The translations under genes were made by a program, and so were the position numbers. Below the pieces are notes generated by a model that made no database searches, was not told where the DNA came from, and saw nothing but the letters and a program-made list of their open reading frames with translations. Of a DNA stretch of 64,000 nucleotides, positions 41,637-49,217 are shown in pieces. Each line of letters opens with the position of its first letter. Position 1 is the stretch's first letter. This DNA is from Longimicrobiales bacterium (lineage in GTDB: Bacteria > Gemmatimonadota > Gemmatimonadetes > Longimicrobiales > RSA9): NCBI GenBank assembly GCA_046483065.1, contig JAWODW010000037.1, positions 1,779-65,778 of the forward strand, read 5' to 3'.

Positions 41637-42163
41637 TACCGATACCGCTCGTCGAGGATCGCCCGGTGGTGGATCTCGTGGCCGGCGATGACCCAGGCGA
41701 TGCCCCGGGGCGTGAACGTCACGCCGCTGGCGGTGCCCGTCCGGAGCAGTGCTGCATCGGTGAGGCCGCGGAAGAGAGCCGCGGTGGATGCCCGGACCGC
41801 CGCGAGCTCGGCCTTCACGCCGTCGAGGGTGCGGGGCGCCAGGTCATCGGGAACCACGTAGTCGTCCTGCGCGAAGCCCGGCAGCGGCGTGGCATCGCCC
41901 CGGGCGATCCGGAGCGCACGATAGCCGAACACCCGCTCGGTATCGGCCAAATGGACCAGGACCTCCTTCAGACTCCATTTCCCGGCGGCGTACCGGTAGT
42001 CGGGGTCCACGCCGAGAGCGTCGACCACGCGGAAGGTCTCCTCCAGCTGTCCGGCCAACGCCGAGAGCAGGCTCCCCGCCGGTCGGTGCTCCAGGTAGCC
42101 GCGGTAGTACTCGGCTACCTCGTCCGGGCCGGGACGGCCGTCCAGCACGCCGATGCCGCTCAC
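41636..42163 (-). CDS. DinB-family (DinB_2-like) four-helix-bundle metalloprotein
   Basis: GTG 42163 forms a GTGA overlap with the upstream stop. EVLVHLADTERVFGYR and IAGHEIHHRAIL His motifs. Confidence 0.75.
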   Translation of the reverse strand: MSGIGVLDGRPGPDEVAEYYRGYLEHRPAGSLLSALAGQLEETFRVVDALGVDPDYRYAAGKWSLKEVLVHLADTERVFGYRALRIARGDATPLPGFAQDDYVVPDDLAPRTLDGVKAELAAVRASTAALFRGLTDAALLRTGTASGVTFTPRGIAWVIAGHEIHHRAILDERYR

Positions 42164-43062
42164 TCGGGGACCCCGCAGTCGCTCCGGGGCAGCGCTCGGC
42201 CGGGTGCCTCGATCCGGGCTTCCACCCGGGCCACCACCGCCGGACGCATGTCCAGGAACCGATGGACCAGGACCGTGTCGATCCCGGCAAGCACCGCCTC
42301 GAAGGAGTCGGCCGGGAGGCTGCGGTACCGCCGCCACGGCCGCCCCAGATCGCCGGGCTCGGCGATGGAGTCGATCTCCGCCTCCCAGCACGTGGTCGGC
42401 CGCGTGGTGGGCTGATACTCGAAGGCCCGGTTGTGGTCGATGGCTACCACCCGGTCACCCACAAGCAGCCAGTTGTTCGGGTGCCGGTCGCTGTTCCCGA
42501 TGATCGCGTCGAACAGACGCAGCGCGTCAGGCTTGCCGGCACCCTCGTCCGGCGGCGAGCGGGCGTCGGCCACGAAGTACATGGTCGAACCCGACAGGGT
42601 GTCCCCCTGCTGGTTCCTGATCCGGGTCCTGATGGTCATGGGCGTGAGATCCATGGCCAGGACCCGGTCGATCCGGTAGGTGGCCACTTCCCGGTCGGCG
42701 CCGCACTCGGGGCAGAAGATGTCGGAACCGTCCACCTTGAAGATGGACCGCACACCCGCCCCGTGATCGAGACGCCAGGTGTACGAGACGCCCTGGCTGT
42801 CCATGGCCAGCGGCGTGGCGGCCTCGGGCCACCCCCGGAGCCGTCCCTCGAGCCGGACCAGGACCTCCTCCGCACCCGCCGTGTCCCCGGCCGCCCGGAG
42901 CGTCCACGCGGCCTCCTGCAGACGCCCGCGCTCCAGCAGACTGTCCACCACGGCCTCGGCCCCGGCACCCTGAGCCGCCGCCGGCAGAGGCGCCCACGCC
43001 CCCGCCACCCACGCGGCCAGCCCCAGGACGATCACCCGCATTCCTCGCCTCGTTCCCTTCAT
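42160..43062 (-). CDS. Signal-peptide protein with PI3/PI4-kinase-like catalytic motifs, paralogue 3 (divergent)
   Basis: Start MKGTRRGMRVIVLGLAAWVAGAWA... Motifs FKVDG (Lys), REVATYRIDRVLAMDLTPMT, IIGNSDRHPNNWLL (DRHxxN), VAIDHNRAF. Confidence 0.65.
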   Translation of the reverse strand: MKGTRRGMRVIVLGLAAWVAGAWAPLPAAAQGAGAEAVVDSLLERGRLQEAAWTLRAAGDTAGAEEVLVRLEGRLRGWPEAATPLAMDSQGVSYTWRLDHGAGVRSIFKVDGSDIFCPECGADREVATYRIDRVLAMDLTPMTIRTRIRNQQGDTLSGSTMYFVADARSPPDEGAGKPDALRLFDAIIGNSDRHPNNWLLVGDRVVAIDHNRAFEYQPTTRPTTCWEAEIDSIAEPGDLGRPWRRYRSLPADSFEAVLAGIDTVLVHRFLDMRPAVVARVEARIEAPGRALPRSDCGVPE

Positions 43063-43436
43063 CCCACCTCGCCCTCCGCTCGAAGATCGGCAGCACGCAG
43101 CCACGAAGGACAAGCTCTATCCGCTGCGCCCGATCCGCCAGGGTGACCCACCGATTCGTACCGCGCCCTCTCCCTGGTCGACGGCAGGCTGAGGAGACGG
43201 AGAAGTACGAAGCGGCTCTACAGGTACAGGCCGACGGAGACGGCGACGAAGAGGAAAAGGGCAGCCTCCCGGGTGAGACTCTCCGCGGCGCTGCGTTCCG
43301 AAAGCTGCGAAACCGCTGGCATGTGTCGGGCAAACGCATCAACAACTTCGGAGATGAACCCAGGAAATTTTCGGGCGGGGATCGGGGTATGCCGTAAGTG
43401 TAACCCCAGCAAGGACTTACGATTTTCCGCCGAAAA

Positions 43437-44579
43437 TCAGCTCCAGTCGCTGGGCTGGTCGAAGTGGCGGCGGGAGAGGATGAGGGAGCGGCCCTGTGTG
43501 ACTTCACGGCGGAAGCCCAGGAGGTGGAAGACTTCGGTGGTGTACCAGCGGGCCACGCGTCGATCGACGATGACAGCGTCGGCGATGTAGGGGTGGCGTC
43601 GGACGCCGGGCAGGAGTGGAGCGAAGCGGTCGAGGCCGAGTCGTCGCAGGAGTGTGGAGAGTGCGAGCCAGAAGGGGCGGACATCGCGGGTGAGGAAGAA
43701 GCCGTCGTCGCCCCGGTTCTGGTAGAGGGGCATGAGGAGCCGTCCGTTCTCGGGGGCGAGTACGGGGCGGCCATCGCCCCAGCTGCCGAGCCGCTGGCCG
43801 GCGTCCACGGGCTGGAAGCTGCGGAACCCCGGCTCCATGATCAAGGTGCGGCCGCTCGGGATCTCGTGGCGGTAGCGGATCTCCACCACGCGGGGCTGGC
43901 CGCGAGCGGCTTCCCGGAGCCGGGTCTCGGGGTCGGGGCCGGGTACGTGCATTCTGTGGAGGATCCCTGCGGCGGTCAGGGCGATCCACGCCACGGCCTC
44001 GAGGCGGTCCACGGCCTCGGGGCTGTCGTGGCGCCCGCCCTCGCACCCCATGGTGACGCACCCCCGGTTGTTGACGTACTCCAGGAACGTGGCGGCGAGC
44101 TGTTCCTCGAGGCCCAGGACCATGGGGAGCGGGAACTGCTCGGCGAAGCGCCGGTTGCGGAGGGTGTCGCCCACGGTGAGGAAGGGGGGCGTGTCACCGG
44201 AGGTGGTGTGAAAGTCCACGACGATGGGCGGGCCATCGGCCCGGCGGAATGCGGGCCGGATGGCGTCGAGGAGCTCGCGTCGCTCCCGGTCCTCGACGCG
44301 GGTGCTCCCCGGGTGATCCCTGTCGATGGCCTCGGGCCACCATTCCCGGTTCATGTCGGAGTCGACGAAGCGGACGCCCCGACCGAGGGCCGTGACGTTG
44401 CCCACCACGGCCAGCACCTCGCCGTGAAGCTCGTCGGCGGGCGGCAAGCGGCGGAAGACACGACGGAGCGCATCCACGCCGGCGGGCTCGTTGCCGTGGA
44501 GCGAGCCGACGAACACCAGGGTGCGGCCGGGTCCACCGCGGCGGTGGCCGATGACGCGGTCGGCGAGCCGCTCCGTCAC
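43437..44579 (-). CDS. Succinylglutamate desuccinylase/aspartoacylase (AstE/ASPA, M14-like) family protein
   Basis: VFVGSLHGNEPAG zinc-binding HxxE motif, ..DFHTTSG.. Overall length and order are typical of the family. Confidence 0.8.
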   Translation of the reverse strand: MTERLADRVIGHRRGGPGRTLVFVGSLHGNEPAGVDALRRVFRRLPPADELHGEVLAVVGNVTALGRGVRFVDSDMNREWWPEAIDRDHPGSTRVEDRERRELLDAIRPAFRRADGPPIVVDFHTTSGDTPPFLTVGDTLRNRRFAEQFPLPMVLGLEEQLAATFLEYVNNRGCVTMGCEGGRHDSPEAVDRLEAVAWIALTAAGILHRMHVPGPDPETRLREAARGQPRVVEIRYRHEIPSGRTLIMEPGFRSFQPVDAGQRLGSWGDGRPVLAPENGRLLMPLYQNRGDDGFFLTRDVRPFWLALSTLLRRLGLDRFAPLLPGVRRHPYIADAVIVDRRVARWYTTEVFHLLGFRREVTQGRSLILSRRHFDQPSDWS

Positions 44580-45016
44580 GGCGCGTCGGTGCGGCGGGGT
44601 GCGTCGGCCAGGAGCTCGCCGGCCACGCGCGCCACGTCGTGCTCGCTGAGGATCCCGACCACGCGGTGGTCGTCCACCACGGGCACGGCGGAGACGTCGT
44701 GCTCGAGCATGAGCCGGATGGCCTCACGCAGCGGGGTGGCGGTGGTGACGGTGACGGGGTCCGGGATCATGAAGGCGTCCACCCGGCCGCCTTCTTCAAT
44801 CTCGCCCGCGCGGCGGGCGGCCAGGAGCCGGAGGACCGCTCGATAGGAGACGATCCCGAGGAGGCGTCCGTCGTGGTCCACCACCACCAGCTGGCGGATC
44901 CTGCGCCGCTCCATCAGGAGCCCCGCCAGGTCGAGCCGATCGTCAGGGGCCACGGTCAGGAGCTCCGTGGTCATGGCGCTGCCGACCGTGGGCCGATCCG
45001 TGTGCGTGGGATTCAC
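44576..45016 (-). CDS. CBS domain pair protein
   Basis: Two CBS motifs (VGSAMTTELLTVAPDD...LVVVDHDGRLLGIVS; IPDPVTVTTATPLREAIRLMLEHDVSAVPVVDDHRVVGILS). 4-nt overlap with the downstream gene. Confidence 0.88.
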   Translation of the reverse strand: MNPTHTDRPTVGSAMTTELLTVAPDDRLDLAGLLMERRRIRQLVVVDHDGRLLGIVSYRAVLRLLAARRAGEIEEGGRVDAFMIPDPVTVTTATPLREAIRLMLEHDVSAVPVVDDHRVVGILSEHDVARVAGELLADAPRRTDAP

Positions 45017-45072
45017 TTCCCAACCTCCCGAAACTCCGGTGCGACGCGGCCTGGCCGGGTCGGCGAGTGCCG

Positions 45073-46110
45073 CTAGACCCCCTTCACGCCCCGCGCTTCG
45101 GGACTCTTCTCGGTGGGCACCCGGCGGAACCGCACGCGCTGACCGTCGTCCAGCGACTTGTAGCCGTCGCCGGCGATGTTCGAGTGGTGGACGAACACGT
45201 CCTCGCCGCCGTCGTCGGGCTCGATGAAGCCGAAGCCCTTGCTGTTGCTGAACCAGCGGACGGTTCCCGTGATCTCTCCCTCTTCGGGGCCGGCGGAGAG
45301 CTCGTCCTCGGAGATAACCCGATCGGGCTCCTCGAAGGAGTCGGCCACACCGGTCTCCTGCGTGGCGCCCACGTCGATGTCGAGGGGGTCGCGCAGCACC
45401 GACCGGCCCAGCTCCCGGGCCTCGCTCGACAGTGTACGGCCGACGAAGAGCACCTGCCGGTTCGCGGGAGTGAGCTCCAGGATCCGCTCGACTTCGGCGT
45501 GCCGCCCGCGCTGGAGGAGGATGTCGATGGGGTCGAAGACCAGGACCTCGACACCTTCGAGGCGGACGTTCCCGGCGTCGACGTGCTCCAGGAGCCGCTC
45601 GGGGGTGGCCACCAGGAGGTCGAAGCCAGCCCGGAGGTCCCGGACCTGGTCCTCGAACGGCACACTGCCGTGGATCTCGCCGACCCAGAGATCGGCCTCC
45701 TCGGCCAGGACCCGGGCCTGCGCGGCGATGTCCTCGACCATGTCCACGGCCGGACTCACGATCAGCGTGTGGAGCCCCTCCCGGTGGAGCTGGCGTTCCA
45801 GCGCCGGGACCAGGTACGCCCCGGTCTTCCCGGTGCCCTGTGGCGCGCTCATGAGGAGGTCGCGCCCGCTCCGCAACGCATCGATAGTCCGCGCCTGGAC
45901 GGGGCGGGCCTCGCGCCAGCCCATGTCCTCGAGCCCGACGCGCAGTGCGTCGTGCTCCACAAGGTCGGCGAAGCCGGCGGGCCCCTTCCGGGTACCCGGC
46001 GACGATGACGCCGGTTCACGACGACGGACCGTGGCCATCACGACCCAGACAACAACAGCTATGACCGCCACAACGAGGACGGTCACCCAGATTTCAGTAG
46101 ATAGATTCAT
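45073..46110 (-). CDS. Membrane-anchored protein: TM helix + degenerate DEAD-box helicase domain 1 + C-terminal cold-shock domain
   Basis: [28 protein letters not shown] (TM). Q-motif-like FADL...ARPVQ, motif [17 protein letters not shown] (Ib). DEAD is replaced by FDPID and SAT by GRT. No helicase-C domain. CSD has KGFGFI and VFVHHS RNP motifs. Confidence 0.75.
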
Positions 46111-46153
46111 GCCCCAATCTTCCCGCGCTTCTGCCCCCCTTGTCAAGCAGGGG

Positions 46154-47488
46154 TCATTCCGACGACCCCGCAGCGAGCCACGCCGCTCGGTCGCCAGCGC
46201 GTACGTACAAGTGATCGCCTACCCGACCCAGGACATCTACGTTCTGGCCGGGTGCAAGGCGTGTGATCTCGGCCGATTCGATACTCGGAAGTTCGCGGAG
46301 CGGAGCGGCGGAGTCCACCGATGCCACCCGCAGCGAAGTGGTCGGCTCGGTCTGGCGAGCGGCCACGAAGCCCCGGCGGCCGCCCGGGATCTCGACCCGG
46401 AGCCAGTCGCCGGAGACGCCCAGGACACGGATCGGGACCTCCCGGTCGAGCCGATCGATCTCGGCCGCCTCCGTGCCGGGCCCCGCCCGGAGCCGCAGGT
46501 CCTGGGTCCCGACCCGTCGCCACGTGCCCGGCTGCACATCGAAGAGCGCCGGCGGGTCGGTGACCAGCGGCTGGACGAACGGCATGGGGTCCAGGGGTCC
46601 CACCCCTCGGCGGTAGACGCCGAAGTGGAGGTGGGGCGGCGTGGTGCGGGCGTTGCCCGAGTTGCCCACCAGCCCCAGGGTGTCCCCGGGTCGGACTTCC
46701 ATCCCCCGCTCCACCCACTGCTCCTCCAGGTGGGCGTAGTAGATGGACTGGCCCCGCTCCTCGTCTCTGAGCCAGACCACCCGCCCGCCGATGGGCGTGG
46801 TCCGGACCGACCGGACTACGCCGGCCGTAGCGGCGATGACCGGCGTACCACGACGGGCGAAGATATCGATCCCGTGATGGTCACGGCGCCCGCCATCGCG
46901 GGAGTCGCCGAAGAAGCTCCGCACGGACCGCGGGCCGCCGTCGTATACGGGGAACGCCAGCGTCGGCTCCATGGTGGCCGTCAGGATGTAGCGACCGCCC
47001 CGAAGCAGCTCGGGCTGGACGCGGATGATGAACGTGCCGTCGCGGGACGGCTCGTGGACCAGTCGGAGCCCGCCGCTGTCGGCGGCGGCCACTCGCTCGG
47101 GCGCCTCCGTGGAGTCCGCCGGCGCCCGGAACAGGTCCAGAAAGATCAGCGTGTTGGTGGGCGGATCCAGCCGGAGGTCGAAGGTGAGCCGCTGGCCCGC
47201 TCGCGCATGGAAGCGATAGCCCACGGCGTCGGGCCGGGACGAGTCCAGGTAGCCGGTCTCCCGGAACGGCGTGTCCACCGGCGGCGCTTCATCGAGCGCC
47301 CGCCGTGCCGCCCGGTTCCACAGGCGCCCCAGCGCCGCGCCATCGAGCCCGGCTTCCTCCAACCGGAGGGCGTAGTGCTCGTGCGGCGCGGCAGCCGCCC
47401 GCTGCTCCCCGACGGCAGGGACGAATCCACGCCCGAGCCAGAATCCGAGCCCGCCTACCGCCACCACCAGAAGGATCCACCATCGCAT
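46154..47488 (-). CDS. M23 family metallopeptidase with N-terminal membrane anchor and C-terminal SH3-like region
   Basis: [18 protein letters not shown] anchor. [37 protein letters not shown]. Confidence 0.88.
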
Positions 47489-47525
47489 GGCTAGCTTAAC
47501 CCTCCAGCCGCGATGGCGTTCCGAA

Positions 47526-49133
47526 TCACTGCCCCCGAACGGGTGCCGCGGGCCGGCGCAGGATCGGGTACCGGGAGCCGGCTTCCAGCGCGTCGTCCAC
47601 CAGGTTCCAGTTCACCACGCCGTCATCGGACCGGGGCTCCAGGAGCGCGAAGATGAGGCGGGCCAGCGGCTGGTTCAGCGGCACGAGCACGGTGCCCCCG
47701 ACCAGCGTCACCTCCGCCGAGCCCCACGTGCCGAACACCTCCCGCTGCCGGTGGCCCTGGTACTCCCGGGGCGCCACGCGCATGGAGTCCACGGTGAACT
47801 GCTCCAGAACGTGCGTCTGCTCCTCCGGCAGCGCCGTGGTGCGCACACCGTGAAGCTCCAGCAGGTCGAGGACCGACGTCAGCTCCGCCGGCACGTAGTA
47901 CGCCTCCGGGACCACCCCGGTCACCGTGGGCTCGAACGTGCCGTACTCCCACATCTCCTCCGGCGTCGCCACGTCGAGCCGCGCCCGGTAGCGCCGGCCG
48001 GAGTACGGGCTCAGCCGCTCCTCCACGGCACCCATGAGGATCTCCACCCGGTCCCCGCGCTTGTGCTGTGCACGAAGCGGCAGGCGCCGACCCCGCAGCT
48101 CCTCGGCATCCGCCGTGGCCACCCGGCGGTCGAGCTCCGACGCGTGGGCGTGGGCGAACGACAGGATCTCCTCCACGAACGCCAGCGTGCTCCGGATCCG
48201 GTCCCGGAACGGCACGTACGAGTACGCCTCGCTCAGGATCCCGAACCGGTTCCGCAGGCCCACGTAGTTGGTGTTGTACCGCGGCTGGTGACTGTAGGTG
48301 TACCAGCCACGATCCCCGCCTCCCGGTGCGTAGGCACCACCGTAATAGTACATGCGCCAGCCCCGCTCCCCCACCTGATGGGTGACCTCGGGCAGCCACT
48401 CCCCCCGGAGCAGCTCCACCAGGCCCGACGCCGTGCCCGGGTGCAGCGGCGGCGCGTAGGTGAGATGGTAGCCGTGGTACGTCCCGTTCGTGGTATGCAG
48501 GTCCACCACCACATGCGGGTCGTACGCCTTCAGGAGCTGGACCAGCGACCGCGCCTCCGGCGACTCCAGCTTCGTGTGGTCCCGGTTCAGGTCGAGGTCC
48601 TGGGCGTTGGCCCGTTGCCCTACACCGCCGAATGGGCCGTTCTGACGGTACCGGTTCTGCACCGATACCCGCTCGTTCCCGTCGGCGTTGTAGATCGGCG
48701 CCACCAGGATGACCAGCGAGTCCAGCCACCCGGCGTGATCCCCGGCCGCGAACCGCCGCAGCAGGACCTGGAGCGCCTCCTTCCCCTCCACCTCGCCGGC
48801 GTGGATGTTCCCCTGGACGTAGACACGCGTGCGACCCGACGACAGCACCGACTCCGGGCTGCCATCCGCCAGGTCCGAACCCACCACCACCAGCGGGAGA
48901 GGACGGCCTTCGTAGCTGTAGCCGAACGTCACCCGATGAAGGACTGGCGCGTCCACCGCGTCAAGGAAGTCGAGCACATCCTCGTACCGGCTCGTCTCCA
49001 GCCAGTCCGTACGCTCCGGACGCGTCTGCAACTGCTGCGCCATCGCCGGCGCGGCCACCAGGCACCCACCCATCGAAAGAGCCGCGATCCCGCGGCCCAT
49101 ACTGCGCATTGCTCTTGTCATGTCAGTAATCAT
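47526..49133 (-). CDS. M14 family zinc carboxypeptidase (secreted)
   Basis: QGNIHAGEVEGKEA (HxxE), DLNRDH, VVDLHTTNG. The start is uncertain among four clustered ATGs at 49100..49133. Confidence 0.85.
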   Translation of the reverse strand: MITDMTRAMRSMGRGIAALSMGGCLVAAPAMAQQLQTRPERTDWLETSRYEDVLDFLDAVDAPVLHRVTFGYSYEGRPLPLVVVGSDLADGSPESVLSSGRTRVYVQGNIHAGEVEGKEALQVLLRRFAAGDHAGWLDSLVILVAPIYNADGNERVSVQNRYRQNGPFGGVGQRANAQDLDLNRDHTKLESPEARSLVQLLKAYDPHVVVDLHTTNGTYHGYHLTYAPPLHPGTASGLVELLRGEWLPEVTHQVGERGWRMYYYGGAYAPGGGDRGWYTYSHQPRYNTNYVGLRNRFGILSEAYSYVPFRDRIRSTLAFVEEILSFAHAHASELDRRVATADAEELRGRRLPLRAQHKRGDRVEILMGAVEERLSPYSGRRYRARLDVATPEEMWEYGTFEPTVTGVVPEAYYVPAELTSVLDLLELHGVRTTALPEEQTHVLEQFTVDSMRVAPREYQGHRQREVFGTWGSAEVTLVGGTVLVPLNQPLARLIFALLEPRSDDGVVNWNLVDDALEAGSRYPILRRPAAPVRGQ

Positions 49134-49217
49134 GCGTGCACCCGTGCGAATCCCGCAAATCAGGGCCGGGCACCGCCCTGATCCGGAAACCACCCGCCGA
49201 CAACCACCAGCCAGACC

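Follow-up and report, generated by a model that had tools for sequence, protein, structure and literature searches.

In DEAD-box RNA helicases the glutamate of motif II is the catalytic base, and residues of motifs V and VI in the second RecA-like domain (RecA2) are needed to complete the ATP site as well as the bipartite clamp on RNA. Here we describe a gene from a 64-kb stretch of the Longimicrobiales bacterium contig JAWODW010000037.1 (the whole of this stretch is referred to as the window) whose product has only the first RecA-like domain (RecA1), set between a predicted N-terminal transmembrane anchor and a C-terminal cold-shock domain (CSD). The gene occupies positions 45073-46110 of the window on the minus strand, which is also the strand of every other feature given below unless stated otherwise. 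On balance we think it probable that the product is a membrane-tethered, hydrolysis-independent RNA-binding pseudohelicase, in which the CSD captures or melts single-stranded RNA and RecA1 serves as a nucleotide-binding and/or partner-docking module.

RhlE/CshA-type DEAD-box helicases, including a group of 415-residue sister proteins described below, share with this protein the RecA1 fold, the Q motif, the Walker A GKT, the motif Ib TPxRL and a set of lineage signatures. Unlike them, the protein lacks RecA2 with its motifs IV-VI, reads DPID at motif II and GRT at motif III, has a degenerate PTRELA motif and has gained an anchor and a CSD. Because RecA2, DEAD, SAT and PTRELA are all missing or altered, the ATP-driven two-domain RNA clamp is not available to it. 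With the CspA family (PF00313) it has in common a full CSD, RNP1, RNP2 and all of the aromatic and basic residues that bind nucleic acid. CspA-family members are free proteins of ∼70 residues, however, whereas here the domain is covalently tied to RecA1 and to the membrane. The protein would work like a membrane-tied cold-shock protein (Csp) with a helicase-derived accessory domain.

Yeast Utp25/Def and Deinococcus radiodurans PriA retain both RecA-like domains. These pseudohelicases lost the catalytic motifs but kept the helicase fold, presumably because it serves in binding or as a scaffold (PMC9539457; PMC4504706). In the present protein, by contrast, one whole RecA domain is gone and an unrelated RNA-binding fold is found instead. 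Among membrane-placed RNA proteins, RNase Y has an N-terminal transmembrane helix, RNase E has a membrane-targeting helix and CrhC associates with the membrane. The last of these, a cyanobacterial helicase, is polar-localised (mentioned in PMC1484253). All three handle RNA at the cytoplasmic face of the membrane, as we propose for the window's protein, which differs in having neither a nuclease nor an active helicase domain and is homologous solely to CrhC, through RecA1.

In Bacillus subtilis, the DEAD-box proteins CshA and CshB and the cold-shock protein CspB are functionally and physically associated (Hunger et al. 2006, as cited elsewhere), and cold-induced helicases and Csps co-localise or interact in this species (PMC1484253; Hunger et al. 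2006). There, the partners are separate proteins and the helicase is active, whereas in our case only a catalytically disabled RecA1 half has been fused. Since cold-induced helicases and Csps associate in B. subtilis, the fusion has a Rosetta-stone logic and supports a functional coupling of DEAD-box modules and cold-shock domains. A DEAD-box module is also covalently joined to a CSD in some uncharacterised full-length DEAD-box helicases; those have a complete canonical core, and no anchor-like N-terminal hydrophobic stretch was evident in the sequences read.

Our literature search found no description of a transmembrane helix with RecA1 only and a CSD, and nothing relevant on fusions of DEAD and CSD domains. 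The main survey of bacterial DEAD-box proteins demanded a Helicase_C domain and would for that reason have missed the family. The original prediction had suggested that the domain combination was undescribed; this appears to hold for the three-part architecture, but the pairing of a DEAD-box with a CSD is already present in databases in the form of the full-length helicases.

Domain architecture of the protein

The coding sequence is complete, with an ATG start, 345 codons and a stop, and by the open reading frame (ORF) list and Pfam it comprises anchor, RecA1 (DEAD), linker and CSD. A TTG at 46146, 36 nucleotides upstream, is a possible alternative start; all orthologues begin at the equivalent MN... 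position. Pfam matched PF00270 (DEAD) to residues 69-233 over almost its whole profile (positions 1-166 of 167; E 1.4e-28), while PF00313 (CSD) matched residues 281-344 (E 6.3e-24). There was no match in the protein to PF00271, the Helicase_C domain that corresponds to RecA2 and carries motifs IV, V and VI. For RhlE, SrmB, CshA and other DEAD-box helicase models in NCBIfam, the first ∼210-230 positions alone were matched; the CspE model gave 83 bits (cutoff 120) and the CspA model 79 (cutoff 130). All of these helicase and CspA/CspE matches are far under the equivalog cutoffs, and the CSD is the C-terminus of a 345-residue membrane protein, not a small free single-domain Csp.

Structural comparisons gave the same picture. 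A phmmer search of PDB sequences returned RecA1 of CshA, DDX6 and Hera as the best matches, with CspA and CspB among the CSD matches. The AlphaFold2 model (mean predicted local distance difference test score, pLDDT, 88.9; predicted template modelling score, pTM, 0.65) consists of a helix at residues 3-29, followed by RecA1 (45-250), a linker that is disordered (255-275) and, as the CSD, a five-stranded barrel (279-344). When this model was searched with Foldseek, the top PDB match was RecA1 of CshA (6aic; TM-score normalised to the PDB target 0.94, root-mean-square deviation 1.4 Å), followed by isolated RecA1 domains of DDX6, Hera and DDX47. Pfam, hydropathy, AlphaFold2 and Foldseek therefore agree on an N-terminal transmembrane helix, RecA1 only and a genuine CSD, which is the architecture originally predicted from the letters of the sequence.

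The anchor (residues 7-28; 46027-46092) was placed by Kyte-Doolittle hydropathy and the modelled helix. Its hydrophobic core is uncharged, with a 19-residue Kyte-Doolittle maximum of 3.04, and there are no lysines or arginines upstream of it and five within the 15 residues downstream. All 101 aligned members of the family have one such N-terminal uncharged stretch, of 19-28 residues (maximum 2.1-3.5), with on average 0.1 lysines or arginines before it and 4.8 in the 15 residues after. The anchor sequence itself is poorly conserved although this pattern is kept throughout. To judge from these residues, the stretch is a signal-anchor signature with a predicted N-out/C-in orientation; under the positive-inside rule, the N-terminus would lie outside and RecA1 and the CSD in the cytoplasm. 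A basic juxtamembrane tether follows (residues 29-45; 45976-46026), which is poorly conserved (mean top-residue frequency 0.30 in clade A, the window's clade) and has pLDDT values below 50 for residues 31-39.

The RecA1 domain spans residues 46-250 (45361-45975), as supported by PF00270, phmmer, Foldseek and the ratios of non-synonymous to synonymous substitution (dN/dS) given below. In the clade alignment, the Q-motif region runs from F47 to RPVQ72 (45892-45972) and the Walker A sequence, motif I, reads APQGTGKT (residues 89-96; 45823-45846). At the motif Ia position we found SPAVDMV where PTRELA is expected. Motif Ib, TPERL (residues 169-173; 45592-45606), is preceded by a near-invariant stretch of 10 residues. 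The motif II position reads DPID (residues 193-196; 45523-45534), proline replacing the catalytic glutamate, and the motif III position reads GRT in place of SAT (residues 224-226; 45433-45441). Sequence and alignments thus uphold the earlier assignment of DPID in place of DEAD and of the loss of SAT and PTRELA.

C-terminal to RecA1 lies an acidic, mostly disordered interdomain linker (residues 251-278; 45277-45360; pLDDT below 50 for 259-274). It is variable but for one short motif in the clade A alignment, F-E-x-P-[DE]-R-V-[IV] (residues 259-266; 45313-45336). The cold-shock domain itself (residues 279-344; 45079-45276) is supported by PF00313, by the PDB matches and by its invariant residues. 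RNP1, KGFGFI (residues 291-296; 45223-45240), and RNP2, VFVHH (residues 305-309; 45184-45198), were read in the sequence and seen in the alignments. The Q motif, APQGTGKT, TPERL, KGFGFI and VFVHHS are all present as had been claimed.

Measured against the features that define DEAD-box helicases, the protein has the RecA1 fold, the Q motif and Walker A and lacks RecA2 and canonical motifs II, III and Ia. Without RecA2, motif II and motif III it falls outside the strict DEAD-box helicase family. As in a pseudohelicase, RecA1 is under selection (dN/dS 0.086-0.144) while the Glu to Pro and SAT to GRT changes are fixed.

A family of half-helicases and its origin

A homologue search of 5.8 billion proteins yielded about 100 clusters with the same architecture, none of which contains Helicase_C. 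The clusters are 42-95% identical and their complete members have 328-386 residues. Named homologues are few, all of them labelled 'Gemmatimonadota' or 'Gemmatimonadetes bacterium', and among these few the family has so far been seen only in Gemmatimonadota, a phylum in which RNA biology has hardly been studied. When 1.84 billion representatives clustered at 50% identity were searched exhaustively with HMMER, only 7 full-length representatives and 2 fragments were found, from which we conclude that the family is real but narrow. No orthologues were found in viral contigs. A pattern scan of genome contigs for orthologues was uninformative on taxonomic range, ordinary helicases and Csps being among the matches listed.

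The possibility that a frameshift or a missed Helicase_C domain had produced the truncated architecture can be dismissed. A tblastn search of the 64-kb window with RecA2 of the closest full-length helicase gave no match in any frame, and the architecture is common to ∼100 clusters. Nor is the CSD a separate gene in relatives, since it is fused in every family member seen. Purifying selection acts on both domains. In the comparison with a 95%-identical orthologue (L090), dN/dS was 0.144 overall, 0.086 for RecA1 and 0.039 for the CSD; against an 80%-identical orthologue, it was 0.144 for RecA1 and 0.066 for the CSD.

No database name reflects the actual architecture of the homologues. JGI calls many of them 'cold shock CspA family protein/soluble cytochrome b562' or '.../ATP:corrinoid adenosyltransferase', and the NCBI name is 'DEAD/DEAH box helicase'. 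The current annotation is misleading, and counts of helicases should leave the protein out.

Motifs were counted in clade A (n = 87), in clade B (n = 8) and in the remaining clades (n = 11), and the CSD was scored in the 105 members having the domain. In clade A, the glutamine of the Q motif (Q72) is found in 87/87 and F47 in 81/87; in Walker A, G94 and K95 are present in 87/87 and T96 in 86/87. For motif Ib the counts are 85/87 for T169 and 87/87 for both P170 and R172. The altered positions are just as constant, with D193, P194 and D196 of motif II each in 87/87, so that DPID is kept in all of these orthologues, and V223-G224-R225 at the motif III position also in 87/87. By comparison, the sister helicases have DEAD in 13/13 and, at the first two positions of motif III, S and A in 13/13, reading SAT. 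The active site of clade A is derived yet frozen.

Other clades have decayed differently. All 8 members of clade B have Q replaced by E, and they keep GKT with DEV[DE] at motif II and [AST]-A (FAAN/FSAN) at motif III. In the remaining 11, Q is present in 10 and the Walker lysine in 5; motif III is variable, and motif II ranges from an intact DEAD (P0098 and P0122) to destroyed (P0124 and P0125). The last two have lost both the P-loop and motif II, whereas P0122 keeps intact Q, I (GKT) and DEAD motifs. The catalytic degeneracy that had been predicted is therefore fixed in the window's own clade but is not family-wide, as the distant P0098 and P0122 carry DEAD without RecA2. On this distribution, loss of RecA2 is the primary loss of helicase function and motif II decay belongs to sub-clades.

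Other parts of the protein are more uniformly conserved. Invariant RecA1 positions in the 101-sequence family alignment include Q155, R157, D158, A161, G162, D164, P170 and L173, which sit in the helix and loop running into motif Ib. All 11 of the more divergent members have R157 and T169, while one or two of them differ at each of Q155, P170 and R172 (Q155 is kept in 10/11). The residues of the CSD that contact nucleic acid (W286, F287, K291, F295, F306, H308 and K335) are invariant in 105/105.

To place the family, we built a neighbour-joining tree on 205 columns of the RecA1 alignment and bootstrapped it 100 times. The half-helicases were monophyletic in 100/100 bootstraps and their sister group, again in 100/100, was formed by 415-residue full-length proteins with DEAD and Helicase_C domains that are RhlE-like (P0105-P0120) and, wherever named, come from Longimicrobiales or Gemmatimonadota. 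RecA1 of the half-helicases is 44% identical to that of the sister helicases and 33% identical to that of other helicases, and the two groups have the signatures LERQ..REGLHTL, LW.GE and Q.RDLRAGFD in common. The monophyly, the sister placement, the difference in identity and the common signatures together show a single origin for the family, in a duplicated phylum-specific RhlE-like helicase that lost RecA2 and gained an anchor and a CSD. The family looks vertically inherited within one phylum. The result is a natural experiment in which a DEAD-box RecA1 has been left by itself, RecA2 and the catalytic glutamate removed and the nucleotide pocket long under tight selection.

Complete helicases with DEAD, Helicase_C and CSD were also present in the tree, with the CSD at the N-terminus in P0138 and at the C-terminus in P0146, P0147, P0149, P0161, P0163 and P0171. 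These lie outside the clade of half-helicases and sister helicases, so their CSD fusions are independent. The combination of a full-length helicase with a CSD is apparently a recurrent architecture, and it is undescribed in the literature searched.

Could RecA2 be provided in trans? The protein would then be one part of a split helicase, active, membrane-bound and targeted to RNA by its CSD, with RecA2 coming from a stand-alone Helicase_C protein or from the sister helicase. Such a system would account for the strong constraint on RecA1, for the retention of the sister helicase's lineage-specific surface signatures and for the intact Q, GKT and DEAD motifs of P0122 and the DEAD of P0098. Clade A, however, has Glu to Pro and SAT to GRT in 87/87, and the Walker lysine is gone from other clades. 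Looking for a stand-alone partner with RecA2 of the sister helicase, we obtained contig-end fragments only, apart from two candidates on long contigs that proved to be frameshift-split full-length genes, and the 64-kb window contains no Helicase_C. We regard a split helicase as quite improbable. In the two long-contig cases, the sister helicase is broken into a DEAD-only and a Helicase_C-only ORF (L092 2462-3726 and L093 3001-3777), on contigs with many fragmented genes. These splits most likely reflect frameshifts in the assembly and feed false 'half-helicase' calls into databases.

Proposed function

According to the model that we favour, the protein would be a single-pass membrane protein with a short N-terminus facing outward and its bulk in the cytoplasm. 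The cytoplasmic part would consist of the RecA1 half of an RhlE-like helicase, a flexible acidic linker and a CspA-type CSD. The CSD would bind single-stranded RNA (possibly single-stranded DNA) without ATP, holding or melting RNA at the inner membrane face. In clade A, RecA1 would be a second module with an adenine nucleotide bound but not hydrolysed, and RecA1 and/or the linker motif FExP[DE]RV may dock a partner, for example the ribosome, an RNase or the sister helicase. Candidate processes are cold or stress adaptation, translation of mRNAs for membrane proteins and RNA decay. A protein of this kind would be a further candidate among the few bacterial proteins by which RNA handling is located at the membrane.

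Several observations on RecA1 bear on this model. The Q motif, the P-loop GKT and the Walker B aspartate are invariant in clade A, and RecA1 of this clade therefore probably still binds nucleotide without hydrolysing it. In Hera, YxiN and Mss116, nucleotide binding by the DEAD-box core is reported to be a function that the RecA_N domain has in isolation (PMC4176333). With motifs IV-VI of RecA2 absent, RNA would not be clamped or unwound in the DEAD-box manner. The loss of hydrolysis and unwinding follows, we infer, from the established DEAD-box mechanism, and RNA-dependent ATPase and duplex unwinding are predicted to be absent. The earlier suggestion that the protein could bind ATP and RNA but probably cannot unwind fits DPID in 87/87, the missing Helicase_C and the selection on the domain.

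Across the family, the CSD residues are invariant in 105/105 while the ATPase motifs of RecA1 decay. We therefore read single-stranded nucleic-acid binding by the CSD as the probable common and indispensable activity, and RecA1 as a part that would be needed as a folded module, ATP hydrolysis apparently being dispensable. The linker motif is strictly conserved within clade A (F259 and P262 in 87/87, R264 in 85/87 and V265 in 84/87, with variable flanking positions) and is possibly a partner-docking or autoregulatory element. The linker of clade B is much shorter (mean 13.5 residues), and the motif is for that reason probably absent there.

Alternatively, RecA1 could be a decoy or adaptor of the sister helicase, competing for or recruiting its protein or RNA partners (for example ribosomal particles or a degradosome RNase) and sequestering them at the membrane. 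RecA1 would then have no nucleic-acid role of its own and the CSD would provide a general RNA affinity. Consistent with this are the conserved linker motif, which suggests partner docking, the sister relationship and the common lineage-specific motifs, the mosaic decay of the ATPase motifs in a domain that is conserved as a whole, and a precedent for a pseudohelicase kept for a structural role, Utp25 (PMC9539457). A pure docking module would, however, have no need of the nucleotide-binding residues that are invariant in clade A, and no partner was identified. The proposal, which we rate as rather unlikely, overlaps the membrane-tethered pseudohelicase model rather than excluding it.

A number of points weigh against the pseudohelicase model. 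On the motif counts, nucleotide binding cannot be the family-wide function, because the P-loop lysine is lost in 6/11 distant members and clade B has Q replaced by E. RNA binding by RecA1 itself is doubtful, given the degeneracy of motif Ia (PTRELA) and of part of the GG doublet. Interdomain packing is not confident in the AlphaFold2 model (pTM 0.65; linker pLDDT below 50), and the positive-inside rule is the sole basis of the predicted topology. No gene neighbour is conserved family-wide among the eleven related loci that we compared. Finally, CSDs bind single-stranded DNA too, which leaves RNA a presumed ligand.

This last point admits a membrane tether for single-stranded DNA, acting in uptake, repair or replication with the CSD as the DNA binder, between which and an RNA tether the ligand range of CSDs and the present data do not discriminate. 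RecA1 descends from a clade of RNA helicases, though, and there are no DNA-metabolism genes among the neighbours, and we consider a DNA tether improbable.

Within the pseudohelicase model, a more specific role for the nucleotide can be imagined. Clade A keeps the Q motif and P-loop, has the catalytic glutamate replaced by proline and has acquired a new invariant arginine in motif III. RecA1 could act as a non-hydrolysing adenine-nucleotide switch that gates RNA binding by the CSD at the membrane, perhaps together with the linker motif. We put this forward as a tentative and somewhat doubtful idea; if true, it would reveal an unrecognised class of DEAD-box-derived single-RecA regulators and couple the energy state of the cell to the fate of membrane-proximal RNA.

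Genomic neighbourhood

The gene is the third in a tightly spaced same-strand run of five (43437-49193). Upstream are an M14 carboxypeptidase (47526-49193; ORF list and Pfam) and an M23 peptidase with an SH3 domain (46154-47488; Pfam), the latter 43 nucleotides from the start of our gene. Downstream, 56 nucleotides after the stop, is a CBS-pair protein (44576-45016; Pfam), which overlaps by 4 nucleotides the gene for an AstE/AspA-like deacylase (43437-44579; Pfam).

In the eleven loci, only the closer relatives, at about 73% identity and above (L086, L090/L091 and L101-L104), preserve the order M14-M23-half-helicase-CBS-AstE-like. The M23 neighbour was found in L086, L091, L102, L103, L104 and the distant L005 (47% identical) and was absent from L001, L003, L004, L087, L088 and L089. 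The CBS gene follows in closer relatives only (L086, L090, L101, L102 and L103) and not in L001, L003, L087 or other clades; genes for ∼140-residue proteins downstream in L001, L003 and L087 turned out not to be CBS homologues. L003 and L087 retain M14 alone, and the neighbours in L001, L004, L088 and L089 are unrelated. No operon partner is thus universal, and with no neighbour conserved family-wide the context offers no functional pointer. Of the proposed membrane-tethered chaperone or sensor, the tether stands as a prediction in 101/101 members, but no conserved partner gene or regulatory element lies behind the chaperone or sensor part. No Rfam family was found in the window. There were no sigma-70-like sites, and the sole nearby terminator-like match is inside the coding sequence of the gene, at chance level.

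Retron Se72 and TOTE systems contain CSD-type effectors and many defence systems contain SF2 helicase domains, and we therefore considered whether the protein belongs to an anti-phage or conflict system. There was a weak match to PF22707 (S1CSD-TOTE-2; E 0.015), the NCBIfam retron Se72 effector model gave 34.9 bits where its cutoff is 82, and PADLOC gave partial matches to CSD_V, DpdF, BrxH and SngC of 44 bits or less. None of these comes near the strength of the generic DEAD and CSD matches, and all are confined to the generic cores. The neighbours in conserved synteny are housekeeping genes (citrate synthase, peptidases and a short-chain dehydrogenase), inheritance is apparently vertical in one phylum and viral contigs yielded no orthologues. 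Membership of a defence system is thus largely refuted by the generic partial matches, the housekeeping neighbours and the lack of viral orthologues, and we give it hardly any weight.

A 772-residue ORF at 45176-47494 on the plus strand runs antisense to our gene and the M23 gene, and the window has further long overlapping ORFs. None of these is a gene; very long antisense ORFs are a usual feature of high-GC DNA.

Further downstream, at 42160-43113, is a gene for a 317-residue protein with a hydrophobic N-terminus and a weak, below-cutoff Pfam match to PI3_PI4_kinase (E 1e-4). This PI3/PI4-kinase-like protein is syntenic in several relatives, a few genes downstream and with 58-88% identity; its counterparts lie at 12148-13014 in L001, about 8186-8977 in L086 and about 3737-4696 in L090.

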